A stretch of DNA of 64,000 bases from a virus (IMGVR_UViG_3300035181_002074:32001-96000), one strand, 5' to 3'. Counted from the first letter of the stretch, positions 48,549 to 54,026 are shown. Made by a program: numbers and translations. The notes: generated by a model not told the origin, from the letters alone.

Positions 48549-49142
48549 TTAAAAAATATCGGACAAGTTCAGATCTTTTTTCTTCACTGTAAAACTCTTG
48601 GTAAAGCCATACCAAGCTATGCAGCAGGCGTCAGCGATGTCATTATCTTTTAATAGTAGTTCTAGGCCAAATTTCTCATTCACCCAGTTAACGCTAAGAT
48701 GCTTCCAAGTGATTTTACCTTTGGCAGTTTTACGACTGACTTTTTTATTATGGGCACGTTGCTCTGTACTTAATTTAATTCCAAGGGTTCTGCGCCACAT
48801 AGAAGTATCAACGTAGCTTACCTTGTTTGCAGCACCGTATTCGCGCAACATTTCAAGAACTGCATAATGAACAAATTCCAATTGTTTTTGTGAGGTTCTA
48901 AATGAACCGGTATTCGTTTGCTCAATATAAACATGATCAAACTTAATGATTGCCTCATGAAGAATGATTACCGATTTAATCTGATTAGCTATTTCTTTGG
49001 CACGTAGCAATTGATCATAATCAGGAACTAACTCATAGTTATTGGTACTAGGCGCTTCAATAAATCCATAAATAGGCTTATTATCATCTTCAATAATCGC
49101 CCAACCTGTTTTTGTGGATAAATCGAGCGCCAATACCTTCAT
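48549..49142 (-). CDS. RuvC-like Holliday junction resolvase
   Basis: LALDLSTKTGWA, IE, W+..L, DNDIADA. Confidence 0.85.
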   Translation of the reverse strand: MKVLALDLSTKTGWAIIEDDNKPIYGFIEAPSTNNYELVPDYDQLLRAKEIANQIKSVIILHEAIIKFDHVYIEQTNTGSFRTSQKQLEFVHYAVLEMLREYGAANKVSYVDTSMWRRTLGIKLSTEQRAHNKKVSRKTAKGKITWKHLSVNWVNEKFGLELLLKDNDIADACCIAWYGFTKSFTVKKKDLNLSDIF

Positions 49143-49144
49143 GT

Positions 49145-49444
49145 TTAGGCTAGTTTACCGCGTTCTTTGAGTACTTGAACACTGAGTCCGCGCTTGAGGC
49201 GAATTGCCTTCAGGGGATCGGAATAGGTCTGATTGGCAGTCTTGAGTTCTTCTTTAATGCGTTCCAAGTCAGCATCTGCCTCTTTTGCTGCTTCAATATC
49301 AGCTTGATGGGATGCCATCTGAACTAATTTCTCTTTTAAAGCTTCATCTGACATAGAGTAAACTTCTGATGCGAAGGTAGCATCAACTGCGTTTACTTTA
49401 TCCCATAGAGTCGGTGGACCTTTTTTGCCTTTACCTTTTGCCAT
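49145..49444 (-). CDS. hypothetical helical protein
   Basis: AAGGA RBS. Confidence 0.65.
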   Translation of the reverse strand: MAKGKGKKGPPTLWDKVNAVDATFASEVYSMSDEALKEKLVQMASHQADIEAAKEADADLERIKEELKTANQTYSDPLKAIRLKRGLSVQVLKERGKLA

Positions 49445-49445
49445 A

Positions 49446-49682
49446 TTATTTTCCTTTTCCGTTATTATTTTGAATCAAATCTGATACATTGAATGATGTT
49501 GAAGCACCCACTGGGGTAACCGAAGTAATTCCAGCTGTGTTAGTATATCCAACTGTACTACCGTACAGCATGTCACTTGATATATTGCTTGCCGATCCCC
49601 AAGCAGCACCTCTATGGGTACCATTCAGGGTGAGATATGAAGGGGTCACTGTAAGGTTGTTACCAACCAGTGACCCTACTAA
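49446..49682 (-). CDS. -1 frame extension (78 aa) of 49679..49888
   Basis: Open from the slippery site to 49446; no RBS of its own. Confidence 0.6.
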   Translation of the reverse strand, partial: LVGSLVGNNLTVTPSYLTLNGTHRGAAWGSASNISSDMLYGSTVGYTNTAGITSVTPVGASTSFNVSDLIQNNNGKGK

Positions 49683-49688
49683 AAAGGG
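49643..49688 (-). promoter_or_regulatory. putative -1 programmed ribosomal frameshift signal
   Basis: C CCU UUU heptamer, 5-nt spacer, GGGUCACUG/CAGUGACCC stem. Confidence 0.7.
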
Positions 49689-49888
49689 CGTACAATAACC
49701 TCAATCAACTCAAGGCGATCAACATATTGTTCTGGGATTTGACGAGCTACGAGCATTCCCACTTGTTTTTCATCTTTAGCTAAAAGCGTAGTAGGTTTAG
49801 TTAAGATTGTGGTCTTGCCAGTTGTTTGTCCGTCTTTACCGGCTTTTGGGTGCAATAGAATTGCGTATTCAAATAATTTCATTTTCAT
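49679..49888 (-). CDS. 69-aa protein ending VRPF
   Basis: AAGGA RBS and TGG-TATAAT promoter. Confidence 0.75.
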   Translation of the reverse strand: MKMKLFEYAILLHPKAGKDGQTTGKTTILTKPTTLLAKDEKQVGMLVARQIPEQYVDRLELIEVIVRPF

Positions 49889-49910
49889 AATTTCGTTTCC
49901 TTCTGATCTA

Positions 49911-50336
49911 TTATACCATGTAATTTTGATAATTCGTCCAAAGAGTGTCAATAATGGTCATTTTATTTGAAATCATTGTGCAAGTAGACATTTTCATGAA
50001 TTTACCGACGTTCTTAGTTCGCAGATCATCCATAAACTGGATTAATTCTTGATACCCCATAGAAGACGTCTTAACGCTGGATGGCGGAAATTTATTTTTA
50101 TGAGCCACATAGTTCGCGTAAAACTCGGCTTCATCTCGATCAATGAAAGCTCTGTAAGTAAAAACTTGATTCTCATCCATCTCGTAACATAAAGCGGTTT
50201 TACCGGCAGCTTGTAAAAAAACTAAGTATAATGAGCCATTTTCATGAAGAACGTCGAAATACTCCGTTAAAAGTTCTCTAGACGGTGGAACTTTGATAAA
50301 TTCGTTACGCTTTGATAAAACTGCATTTTCCATCAT
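49911..50336 (-). CDS. hypothetical protein
   Basis: GAGGT RBS. Confidence 0.6.
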   Translation of the reverse strand: MMENAVLSKRNEFIKVPPSRELLTEYFDVLHENGSLYLVFLQAAGKTALCYEMDENQVFTYRAFIDRDEAEFYANYVAHKNKFPPSSVKTSSMGYQELIQFMDDLRTKNVGKFMKMSTCTMISNKMTIIDTLWTNYQNYMV

Positions 50337-52014
50337 ATGTTACCTCAATCACGTTGTCAAAACTTTCCTTGATTTCGGTCGAATGATCGATTATAATCAA
50401 AGTCCCGCTTATTTTTGGCTTCAAAGCTTCAATTGCTGCACGTTTAGACTCAACATCTAGCCCATCCATGCCTTCGTCTAATATCATCCACCCTAATGGA
50501 GATCCAGTGCGTCGCTTCACTACTTCGGCAATCGCTAAATCAACGCAAAGTTCGATCGCACATTGCTGCCCACCGCTTAAACTTTTACGCGAAATGATTT
50601 CAGATTGGCGATAAAGATTAATAGCTATGTTCTTCTTAATACTACCACCCTTAGTGATCGAATTAGATTCAAATTTCAAATAAATATGATTCACATTTTC
50701 AAATGAAGTCATGAAATCGTTTGTCTTTTGCTCGATTTCGGCTAAAACATTACTAAAAATTACGGACATGAAGCCAGATTTACTAAAAATATTCGCAATA
50801 TGCTTCTGTTTTTCTAGTAATTGGCTTGATGCAATCAGCTTGGATTTTATTTCCGCTTGTTTCGAGATGTTTGCCTCATGTGTGCGTAGTCCATTTTCTT
50901 CTGACTGCAATACTTGTATAGCCATAGACAATACTTGCTGGGTTCTGGACACCTCTTGGCCGATATTCGACAGCTGGGTATTCTTTTGTGCTAAGTTTAG
51001 TTCCAATTCTGGCAATCTATCAATTTCTAGCTGCACTTTTGGGATCATATCAATTAATGCCTGACGCCTTGCCAATAATTGACCCCCTTCTGTTTGTTTT
51101 TGCTCTAGTAAAAGGGAATTGTTGTCCCATTTTTGATTACATGTAAAACATTTTTGCTCGTTCAAGTGGTTAATCTCGCTAGCCAATGACGTTAATTTCG
51201 ATGTAATGCTAGATACTTCACTAGAATATAAAACAAGGTCTCTTTGGAATCCGCGAAGCTTGTTTATTTCATTTTTACTGTTATTGATCTCAAAAATTAA
51301 TGATTCTGGCACTTGATTGTTTAATTTTGCTGCGTCGTATTTAATCTGCGCATCAGCCACTTGAGTTTTTGCTGCGGCAATGAACTCTGAGCGATCCTGA
51401 GACATATTTATGATATCACTTACGGCGGTATATGAAGATTTAAATCCTTCGGTTAATCTTTCGGTGTTTTTTAAATCTAATTCAGCTTTTTCACACGCCT
51501 TTTCTAGATCGTCCAGTCCTAACACGCTACTAAGGAAATCTTTTTTGTATTGATCATTTGAATTAACGAATCGACCAAAACTTCGTTGTGATCTATAAGT
51601 CAGAGCTTCTACAATATTTAATGGAGTTTTTAATAATTCAACTAGCTTTTCTTCCGCAGCAACAGATTGCGACACATATGGCACACCATTAATAATAAGA
51701 GAGAGTTTGGGCGTCCTGCAAATAATAAATTCATTTGTGCCGTCAGATAATGTCAACTTAACGGACATTTTATCACTATCCCAGTTTTTTAATTCCGTTG
51801 CAGGTAGATCACAGAATCCAAGAGCAAAAGCTATTGCTTGAACAATGCTAGATTTACCGGTACCAGAAGTTACAGCACAGTCGGTGCGTTTACCGGTTAA
51901 TAAAATTGTAGTAGCGGAAAATTCGATAGATGTATAATGCTTAAATGAACGAAAACCTTCTAGCTCTAACCTAACTGGACGAAGAGTCGTATTATTTTTA
52001 AGATTCTGTATCAT
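50305..52014 (-). CDS. sbcC: SbcC/Rad50/gp46 ATPase
   Basis: GTGKSS, CFTC hook, LSGGQ, ILDE, H-loop. Confidence 0.9.
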   Translation of the reverse strand: MIQNLKNNTTLRPVRLELEGFRSFKHYTSIEFSATTILLTGKRTDCAVTSGTGKSSIVQAIAFALGFCDLPATELKNWDSDKMSVKLTLSDGTNEFIICRTPKLSLIINGVPYVSQSVAAEEKLVELLKTPLNIVEALTYRSQRSFGRFVNSNDQYKKDFLSSVLGLDDLEKACEKAELDLKNTERLTEGFKSSYTAVSDIINMSQDRSEFIAAAKTQVADAQIKYDAAKLNNQVPESLIFEINNSKNEINKLRGFQRDLVLYSSEVSSITSKLTSLASEINHLNEQKCFTCNQKWDNNSLLLEQKQTEGGQLLARRQALIDMIPKVQLEIDRLPELELNLAQKNTQLSNIGQEVSRTQQVLSMAIQVLQSEENGLRTHEANISKQAEIKSKLIASSQLLEKQKHIANIFSKSGFMSVIFSNVLAEIEQKTNDFMTSFENVNHIYLKFESNSITKGGSIKKNIAINLYRQSEIISRKSLSGGQQCAIELCVDLAIAEVVKRRTGSPLGWMILDEGMDGLDVESKRAAIEALKPKISGTLIIIDHSTEIKESFDNVIEVTYDGKCSFIKA

Positions 52015-52256: not shown

Positions 52257-54026
52257 TTAGTTCACCGAACCTCTATCACCAACAGCCATTTCGTACTTAC
52301 GAATCGCGTGAGCTTCTTTCGCATCTTCCTCGGTATTGCGCCCAAAAGCGATAACTCCGCCAATTGTCCCTAGAAGGGAAGCGATTGATAAACTATTACG
52401 AATTGCCTCCACCACAGCAGGAACGGAATCAAGTAATTCATGTTTTGGAACCCATTTCTCTTCCGAAATATCGAAAGCTTCATTTTCATTTTTAAGCATA
52501 GATACTAGCTGTAATTCAGTATCTGCTGCATTATATCCATAATTCTTATAAATTGCACGAACTGGTTCAAGTAAAGCATCAGACAATGCAAGCATAGCCA
52601 ATCTTGCAACGTTACCATACGCGGTTGATGTGCTCATGCCCAATAATTCAGAAGACAGCTTAACTAATACGAACCCACCACCGGGACATGCTCCACTTTT
52701 AATTGCGCCACGAATAGCCATCCAAGCATCTTCAGCGCGGTCTCTTTTTTCTCTAGTTTCACCTTGAGAAGAACCGTAAATATTTAAACGCGCAATGCCG
52801 CTAGTAAGTTTTCCAATACGAACAGGGATAACTCGTTTTTCGTATTCAGATTCAGCTTTGGATAGCTGAGCCTTTAATTCATCAACACGCATTTGAATTG
52901 CTTCCAAGTCTTCTTTGGCAACAATAGAAGTCTTAAATCTCGATGCCTCAAAAGAAATCACTTTATTGTTTCTGTAGATAGATTCAGCGTTTACATCTGC
53001 AAATGGGCGATCAATCGGATTAAATACCGGACACCCAGTATAAGCTTGCATGTCGTACAGTGTTTGAGTAGAGTGGTTTCTTAAACCATTCTGCTCAGTA
53101 GCAACTGGGTATAACTTAACGTCAGATTTCCCGTTATTCCAGTTAAAGTGTAATGAACCAAGCACAGAATCATTAAATCCATGGGCTACAAGAGCTATTG
53201 CAATTGGCTGATTATTTTCTCTGGCGTAGTTCGCTAGCACATCAATACCTGTGGTAATTTGACTCAGATCATTGATAATACCGTCATATAAAACAATGAT
53301 TGGTTTATCCATTTTTACGGCAGTGCCGCCACGATCATTCACAAACCCGTTACTAAAATTACGACAAGACTCTTCATGGCCAGTTTCTACAGTGTAGCCA
53401 TGGATTCTTTCAACTTTATATTGTGAACCTTCGGTACCATCTCCGCGTTCTACGATGGTCATGTTTCCTTCATCGCCAACAACATTGAAGGCTTCAATTA
53501 CTGCATCCGCTAAAGCTTCATCACCATTGCCAGATAGAATTGCAACACGTCTTAGAATTGATTCATTATTGGCATCAATAGAGTGGGATTTAACCTTTTG
53601 CTCAATAAACGGCATCAGTTTCTGTAACTCCCGCACTATTCTTTGGGGGCTCAATTTACTATTAGTTTTAATGATATGATTTACATGCCTCGTAATGGCC
53701 GCAGAAAGGATTGTAGCGGTGGTAGTCCCATCGCCAGCGTCAATGGCAGTTCGCCCCGCTGCGTCACGCGCAGCCTCTAGAATAAGCTGTTGGATAGAGT
53801 CTTGATAGCCAAGATTACGGATCACTGTAACGCCATCTTTGGTGATGATGGGTTTCATTCCGATTTCTGCTCGCTCAATGAGTACTTGTCGCCCACCGGG
53901 CCCTAATGTATGGCCAGCCATTTCGGCCATATTATCCAATGTGCGTATAACGACATCATCCAGACTGTCTGAGGCTGGTAACATAATTTTTGCTGCTGAT
54001 TTAGGCTTCATTGCTTGAAAAGACAT
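52257..54026 (-). CDS. groEL: chaperonin GroEL
   Basis: TLGPGG, ITKDGVTV, AGDGTTTAT, EKRDRAEDA, PGGG. Confidence 0.95.
   Translation of the reverse strand: MSFQAMKPKSAAKIMLPASDSLDDVVIRTLDNMAEMAGHTLGPGGRQVLIERAEIGMKPIITKDGVTVIRNLGYQDSIQQLILEAARDAAGRTAIDAGDGTTTATILSAAITRHVNHIIKTNSKLSPQRIVRELQKLMPFIEQKVKSHSIDANNESILRRVAILSGNGDEALADAVIEAFNVVGDEGNMTIVERGDGTEGSQYKVERIHGYTVETGHEESCRNFSNGFVNDRGGTAVKMDKPIIVLYDGIINDLSQITTGIDVLANYARENNQPIAIALVAHGFNDSVLGSLHFNWNNGKSDVKLYPVATEQNGLRNHSTQTLYDMQAYTGCPVFNPIDRPFADVNAESIYRNNKVISFEASRFKTSIVAKEDLEAIQMRVDELKAQLSKAESEYEKRVIPVRIGKLTSGIARLNIYGSSQGETREKRDRAEDAWMAIRGAIKSGACPGGGFVLVKLSSELLGMSTSTAYGNVARLAMLALSDALLEPVRAIYKNYGYNAADTELQLVSMLKNENEAFDISEEKWVPKHELLDSVPAVVEAIRNSLSIASLLGTIGGVIAFGRNTEEDAKEAHAIRKYEMAVGDRGSVN

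Follow-up and report, generated by a model that had tools for sequence, protein, structure and literature searches.

The gene considered here lies in a window of 64,000 nucleotides (IMGVR_UViG_3300035181_002074:32001-96000) that belongs to a single viral contig of 160,612 bp with a GC content of 39.6% and no close relative among deposited phages; BLASTN and TBLASTN searches with the region and with the 69-residue protein gave no match in 50,697 deposited phage genomes. It is part of a minus-strand block whose other members include a class II ribonucleotide reductase, a RuvC-like resolvase, an SbcC/Rad50-like ATPase, a GroEL-like chaperonin (52257-54026, minus strand; Cpn60_TCP1, E 3.6e-33), a wHTH protein, and a helicase. 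The flanking genes, of 99 amino acids downstream (49145-49444) and 141 amino acids on the other side (49911-50336), are likewise on the minus strand and have no Pfam or PHROG match. A paralog search across the 160.6-kb genome found none, and the gene is thus present in single copy.

The 0-frame coding sequence occupies 49679-49888 on the minus strand, from an ATG at 49888-49886 to a TAG at 49681-49679, and encodes 69 amino acids ending in EVIVRPF. A Shine-Dalgarno-like AAGGAA (49897-49902, minus strand) stands about 9 nt 5' of the ATG. Further 5', within the end of the preceding ORF, a consensus scan located a promoter-like TTGACA-17-CAAAAT element (49923-49951, minus strand; 10 of 12 positions matched), and just downstream of it TGGTATAAT (49918-49910, minus strand), read directly from the sequence, resembles an extended -10 element; both are consensus-type matches only. 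At its other end the gene closes with GTA CGC CCT TTT followed by the TAG stop, which places the heptamer C_CCU_UUU (49682-49688, minus strand) in X_XXY_YYZ phase with respect to the 0 frame and directly against the stop codon. A 5-nt spacer, UAGUA, which includes the stop (49677-49681), separates the heptamer from a 34-nt stem-loop (49643-49676, minus strand), a putative stimulator with a perfect 9-bp outer stem (GGGUCACUG/CAGUGACCC), a small inner stem, and a tetraloop. Read from 49676 to 49643, its layout is GGGTCACTG GTTG GTAA CAAC CTTA CAGTGACCC. Folded alone, this hairpin has a predicted free energy of -19.7 kcal/mol (z = -4.26), and none of 200 shuffled sequences folded as well. RNAfold favours a 3-bp stem for its inner part, and the alternative drawing of a 4-bp stem closed by a GUAA loop, which is the GNRA-loop version first put forward for this site, is equally valid. 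Rfam covariance models gave no match over 49400-49950 at E<=1.

Behind the stop codon, the -1 frame is open. A ribosome shifted at the heptamer would enter it at the TTA at 49682-49680 and would read 78 sense codons (LVGSLVGNN...NNNGKGK) before the TAA at 49448-49446, so that the extension spans 49446-49682 on the minus strand. In the +1 frame a stop appears after 6 codons, and a second 0-frame stop follows immediately after the first. The extension is rich in S, T, G, and N and is predicted to be disordered; added to the 69-residue protein, it would give a long product of 147 amino acids with the predicted junction peptide RPF/LVGSLVGNN (in the forms ...VRPFLVGSLVGNN... and ...IEVIVRPFLVGSLVGNNLTVTPSYLTLNGTHR). 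A single base separates the TAA from the ATG of the next gene at 49444. The layout set out in the original prediction was found here in full: the heptamer in phase directly before the stop, the 5-nt spacer and the hairpin with its 9-bp outer stem at the same coordinates, the 78-codon frame ending 1 nt before the next ATG without a ribosome-binding site of its own, and products of 69 (...VRPF) and 147 amino acids with the same junction. Over 49611-49777, a contig assembled from another, independent sample is identical, and the run of five T at the site is therefore not an assembly slip.

To place the site in an evolutionary context, we used 37 distinct homologous loci, in each of which the gene stops right after the site and whose proteins are roughly 35% to 90% identical; one of them came from a profile scan of genome contigs with a 7-sequence alignment. 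A perfect X_XXY_YYZ heptamer is present in 34 of the 37 (C_CCU_UUU in 25, C_CCU_UUC in 7, and A_AAU_UUU in 2), and the other 3 carry U_CCU_UUU. A 0-frame stop, whether TAG, TGA, or TAA, lies directly 3' of the heptamer in every locus. Among the members of the first 23 loci that end in RPF, the arginine is encoded by CGC in 21 of 21 cases and the proline by CCT in 21 of 21, and in the remainder of these genes the two codons account for 20% (10/50) of the arginine and 22% (15/67) of the proline codons. The two most distant members (36% to 39% identity) end in RNF instead, and their AGA/CGA AAT TTT codons rebuild a heptamer, A_AAT_TTT. Scans of viral contigs with these two RNF-type members, which were meant to enlarge the A_AAU_UUU class, returned no relatives. 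The three perfect types, C_CCU_UUU, C_CCU_UUC, and A_AAU_UUU, all fall into the H_HH.U_UU.Y class, which is among the most efficient frameshift motifs in Escherichia coli, as U_UU.C and U_UU.U are among the best tetramers (Sharma et al. 2014, PMC4066793).

The expectation that homologues would keep the heptamer at synonymous positions held throughout the first 23 loci and gave way in part among the 14 added later. The first position of the heptamer is not absolutely fixed, since three of those later loci (L036, L041, and L042), and no others, have CGT in place of CGC and hence U_CCU_UUU, in which re-pairing in the P site would require a G-U pair. For these variants either the P-site requirement is loose or slippage of a single tRNA-Phe on U_UUU carries the event.

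The stem is kept in a different manner from the heptamer. In most loci a stem begins 3 to 8 nt 3' of the heptamer, and its sequence is unrelated from one locus to another, which supports the original prediction. Arms such as GGCTCGTAT/ATACGAGCC (L001), GCCACCCTTA/TAAGGGTGGC (L007), and AGCCTGACT/AGTCAGGCT (L017) illustrate this diversity. Stems cannot be aligned between subfamilies; in a single subfamily, a change in one arm is matched by a change in the other (GGGGTGAGTTT/AAACTCATCTT in L023 versus AGGAGTGAAT/ATTCACTTCCT in L031). In the first 23 loci, scores for an uninterrupted stem exceed those of random positions (Mann-Whitney p=4e-9), with 13 of the 23 above the 95th percentile of random positions; about 10 of the 23 lie within the background by this score, and several of these show bulged stems in RNAfold.

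The -1 frame itself is open for 49 to 154 codons in all 34 complete loci, the other 3 being cut by the end of the contig, and in those loci where the 0 and +1 frames were translated they are mostly shut within a few codons. The C-termini encoded by this frame align across 24 tails to S-T-S-(F/Y)-x-A-x-x-(L/I/V), placed 1 to 12 residues before the stop; in the window the corresponding motif is STSFNVSDL (49476-49502, minus strand; extension residues 61-69). Conservation of an open -1 frame, which had been suggested as a check, is therefore accompanied by a conserved C-terminal motif that this frame encodes. Over the 13 codons of the motif block in six close relatives, 10 columns vary, with 1, 1, and 8 of these columns at codon positions 1, 2, and 3 of the -1 frame, respectively. 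The linker ahead of the motif is hypervariable in both length and sequence and is of low complexity, rich in S, T, N, Q, and G. In the P0208 subfamily (L030-L038), whose cores are 87% to 90% identical, the linker can be wholly replaced, as between L030 and L031, with the last ~13 residues unchanged, which suggests rapid turnover or recombination within the linker. The longest extension, of 154 codons, occurs in L043 (1201-1670) and still ends in the family motif (QASYQSAASIMGRR).

Two metagenomic relatives have lost the slippery site. The first of two tandem gene copies in L018 and L026 no longer has the heptamer (AGA CCA TTT AAA and CGA CCA TTT TAC, respectively) and encodes an in-frame long form of 112 and 118 amino acids, with a QSF(K/N) motif. 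The second paralog has its start inside the final codons of the first copy and ends in ...RQF or ...RKF directly before a stop, with no extension, so that the contig sequences (L018:1492-2014 and L026:922-1459) each hold a long in-frame gene followed by an overlapping short-only gene. A terminator-like hairpin (GGACGGCGGA...TCCGCCGTCC) is present 3' of the second copy in L018. Further in-frame long forms are P0029, P0031, and P0103. Since L018 and L026 encode the long and the short protein separately where the frameshift is absent, it can be argued that both products are needed, and we infer that they are needed at a set ratio.

Taken at the level of sequence comparison, these loci establish that the slippery heptamer, the adjacent stop, the downstream stem, and the coding -1 frame are under selection across the family. 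The reading that we favour is a canonical programmed -1 ribosomal frameshift at the extreme 3' end of this small phage gene, to which we assign a probability of close to nine in ten. Four other explanations for the same arrangement deserve consideration. The extension might be a separate small gene, with a start codon of its own or with reinitiation after termination at the UAG. Gene callers have annotated it as an ORF in L005 (65 amino acids), L022 (69 amino acids), and L025 (54 amino acids), and a GTG or ATG lies 0 to 3 codons into the extension in L003, L022, and L025, the last with a TAATG overlap; in these three loci termination-reinitiation could contribute. Elsewhere the start signals expected of a gene are often missing. 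Homologue cores carry AGGA or GGAG before their start codons, and the extensions lack a preceding Shine-Dalgarno sequence in 21 of 23 loci, with only a 4-nt partial match in L012 and L016. Over 60 codons, the extension of L014 offers no ATG, GTG, or TTG; L001, L012, and L021 reach their first start codon only at codon 48 of 82, 46 of 73, and 79 of 81, respectively. For the window, the earliest candidate is a GTG at codon 11 that has no Shine-Dalgarno sequence and falls within the 3' arm of the hairpin. Independent initiation of the tail is on these grounds excluded in several loci, for example L014, L001, L012, and L021, as far as start signals can be read from their sequence. A separate gene would also leave unexplained the frozen synonymous codons, the covariation of the heptamer from CCC to AAA, and the in-frame fused forms, and we regard it as a very improbable account of the family. 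Much the same low probability attaches to a long product made by transcriptional slippage, in which RNA polymerase would add a U at the T run. One extra U within the five T of CCCTTTTT would indeed put the extension in frame, but productive slippage usually requires runs of about 8-9 or more, and five T falls short of this. Slippage of this kind is unlikely because seven loci with CCCTTTCT, which offers only three consecutive T, keep the open -1 frame, the motif, and everything else. A conserved stem at 3 to 8 nt and a strict 0-frame phase of the heptamer are, moreover, features of ribosomal frameshifting.

The hairpin could alternatively be a terminator or an mRNA-stability element, a possibility already raised in the original prediction, with a non-coding frame downstream and an incidental heptamer. 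A strong GC-rich hairpin right behind a stop codon, and a gap of 234 nt before the next gene that is unusual for a phage, would both fit such an element. A terminator scan of 49000-50400 found no terminator-like site, and the stem is followed by CUUCAUAUCUC rather than by a U tract. A terminator role thus fails for want of a U tract and also because protein is encoded downstream: in 37 of 37 loci the frame there is open, its peptide motif is conserved, and its substitutions are biased towards third positions. We accordingly give this explanation even less credence than the two above. The least credible is that the break between the frames reflects a homopolymer sequencing or assembly indel, or a pseudogene. 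The break does sit in a run of five T, and a few contigs have in-frame long forms, but the same break is found in 37 loci that were assembled independently in many studies and is unchanged in the second sample's contig; as it recurs in so many independent assemblies, an assembly error is excluded. Programmed -1 frameshifting remains as the strongly supported reading, and the event appears to be both real and previously unannotated.

The protein family to which this gene belongs is large and lacks a name. When 1.84 billion proteins were searched with a profile built from seven relatives, 762 cluster representatives matched at E<=1e-3 and 257 did so at E<=1e-10; the representatives stand for clusters at 50% identity, and the family thus comprises at least 762 clusters. 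RPF is the exact C-terminus in 119 of the best 150 representatives. The family is seen mainly in environmental metagenomes, and every protein-database source names its members "hypothetical protein". Pfam, PHROGs, and NCBIfam gave no family match for the core, the tail, the neighbours, or up to 128 members; the isolated matches that did appear (E 0.004-0.009) each concerned one member and each a different family. A PDB sequence profile search with the family yielded nothing meaningful.

AlphaFold2, supplied with a 128-sequence alignment, predicts a beta-beta-alpha-alpha-beta fold for the 69-residue core with a mean pLDDT of 93.3. In the ESM Atlas, this fold is grouped with three clusters that are 94% to 100% viral and are also named "hypothetical protein", and Foldseek of the core against the PDB returned no match at E<=0.001. 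The nearest core folds are those of PurS, the N-domain of ribosomal eL20, and PaaB (VIA Z 5.4-6.2, rmsd 2.4-3.1 A over 52 to 61 residues), a likeness that by the tool's scale amounts to a common small alpha-beta arrangement, with no sequence relation and no function assigned from it. For a natural in-frame long form (P0138), the AlphaFold2 model has a core with pLDDT of 96-98 and a tail with pLDDT of 45-53, with a weak helical tendency over the motif.

The claim that the site lies among DNA-metabolism genes extends from the window, with its recombination, replication, and nucleotide-metabolism neighbours, to the relatives. Genes near the homologues encode DNA polymerase B, GroES/GroEL, RuvB-like AAA proteins, PD-(D/E)XK nucleases, PIF1 helicases, and endolysins, or form runs of small ORFs, and the family gene is never found within a tail module. 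In the L023 contig, GroES and GroEL are encoded only a few genes away from its copy of the frameshift gene. A search for a neighbour gene conserved across the loci found none; only antisense ORF artefacts clustered. One intact signal (L029) is on an 82-kb contig, CBDEUZ010000006.1, that was binned into a Dehalococcoidia MAG, which may be a hint of a host or a prophage, or may be a binning artefact.

In tailed phages, most of the well-documented -1 frameshifts occur in genes for tail chaperones, capsids, and tails, which are also nearly the only places where annotation pipelines join ORFs across a frameshift. A close formal parallel is lambda gpG/gpGT (G_GGA_AAG), where a -1 shift at an X_XXY_YYZ heptamer near the end of a small upstream ORF also yields a short protein and a C-terminally extended one that have a common N-terminal domain and are presumably held at a fixed ratio, and where, as in the counterparts from other long-tailed phages, the arrangement is kept by position and not by sequence. 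The present family has no sequence or family relation to gpG/gpGT, and no Pfam or PHROG match. Unlike gpG/gpGT, its gene never lies between tail tube and tape measure genes; its place is with genes for replication and recombination or with small early ORFs. Its extension is a disordered tail that carries a short motif, in contrast to the folded T domain. An identity as a tail assembly chaperone was considered and was rejected on account of the SbcC-like, GroEL-like, RuvC-like, and ribonucleotide reductase neighbours together with the lack of a Pfam or PHROG match. The extension of a fraction of the molecules at the C-terminus also recalls T7 10A/10B and the 3' frameshifts in capsid and tail genes of Listeria and Enterococcus phages; those cases concern virion structural proteins, whereas the family described here is small and outside the structural modules.

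Outside phage morphogenesis, the tau and gamma products of dnaX (A_AAA_AAG with a stem-loop) resemble this system in the -1 frameshift, the downstream stem-loop, the DNA-metabolism context, and the production of two isoforms that differ in their C-terminal part, which in dnaX binds partners. The proteins are non-homologous, and frameshifting in dnaX makes the shorter protein, because the shifted frame stops almost at once, whereas here it would make the longer one. The heptamer CCCUUUU is identical to that of the NS1' site of West Nile and Japanese encephalitis viruses, which uses C_CCU_UUU with a pseudoknot (e.g., PMC11797035). That site belongs to a eukaryotic RNA virus, has a pseudoknot as its stimulator, and concerns an unrelated protein; the phage site would be read by bacterial ribosomes, has a simple stem-loop, and has a 0-frame stop abutting the heptamer. 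The mechanism is a canonical one. Judged by searches of Pfam, PHROGs, NCBIfam, Rfam, deposited phage genomes, and the literature, both the gene family and the setting in which it lies are new. Literature searches, including the PRFect paper, found no description of the family, although such an absence is not proof. The original suggestion of an undescribed recoding locus is supported by this novelty and by the retention of a canonical signal in the homologues.

On the basis of these features, translation of the gene may be envisaged as follows. Most ribosomes would read ...CGC CCU UUU, reach the UAG, and release the compact 69-residue protein. A fraction would be held up on C_CCU_UUU by a stem-loop, 5 nt further on, that is slow to unwind, with slow termination at the adjacent UAG perhaps a second cause of the pause. 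In a slip of one base backward, the P-site tRNA-Pro would exchange CCU for CCC, and the A-site tRNA-Phe would leave one UUU and pair with another; alternatively, tRNA-Phe alone could slip on U_UUU when the A site is occupied by the stop codon. The shifted ribosomes would then proceed through UUA GUA GGG... and 78 more codons to produce a minority 147-residue form, in which the same core is followed by a disordered S/T/G/N-rich linker and the conserved C-terminal motif STSFNVSDL. Because the slippage signal is kept in dozens of distant relatives, it is very probable that the gene yields these two proteins, a folded core of 69 residues and a longer form of 147 residues whose flexible tail carries the motif at its end.

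In the window and in L003, L023, and L001, the -1 stop and the start of the next gene are at most a few bases apart, and frameshifted ribosomes might couple to the downstream gene there. Coupling is not a general purpose of the extension, since other loci carry a terminator-like hairpin at this position (L006).

What the long form does can be approached by analogy. In SSB, a terminal motif at the tip of a tail tethers partner proteins, and the motif at the end of the long form may act in a comparable way, tethering the core, or an oligomer of it, to a partner while replication and recombination are under way. The original prediction put forward a possible oligomer with a low-complexity tail on some of its subunits. 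A tethering role is favoured because of this SSB-like tail-and-tip layout combined with a two-isoform logic like that of gpG/gpGT and dnaX. A complex prediction with two core copies and the last 36 tail residues, meant to show whether the tail docks on its own core, scored 0.11, below the tool's mark, and carries no weight for or against such docking. The broader assignment of a tethering or adaptor role to the replication and recombination phase is tentative, and the balance of chances lies somewhat against it. With similarly guarded expectations, we consider it possible that the whole family, of at least 762 clusters, depends on two isoforms, a compact core and a form in which the core is followed by a disordered, often Q/N/S/T-rich linker with a conserved 9-residue motif for docking at its end, that their ratio is set by frameshifting, and that gene duplication has replaced the frameshift in some lineages.

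The immediate significance of the site is that a canonical signal is present in a widespread family of "hypothetical" proteins, in which the extension has been missed or annotated as a separate ORF. The evidence set combines frozen synonymous sites, heptamer covariation, structure without sequence conservation, a motif encoded in the trans-frame, and lineages with separate genes. Comparative evidence of this kind is unusually complete, and the site could therefore serve as a new model for -1 frameshifting on C_CCU_UUY in bacteria; it is also a possible test case for frameshift predictors. For the biology of the family, the conserved short C-terminal motif should bind something and would offer a direct handle on the function of these phage proteins. 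If the two-isoform reading is true, the family would represent a new kind of tethering module, with two isoforms, that belongs to the replication or early programme of phages. It would then also show, as few natural examples do, that frameshifting and gene duplication are interchangeable solutions.
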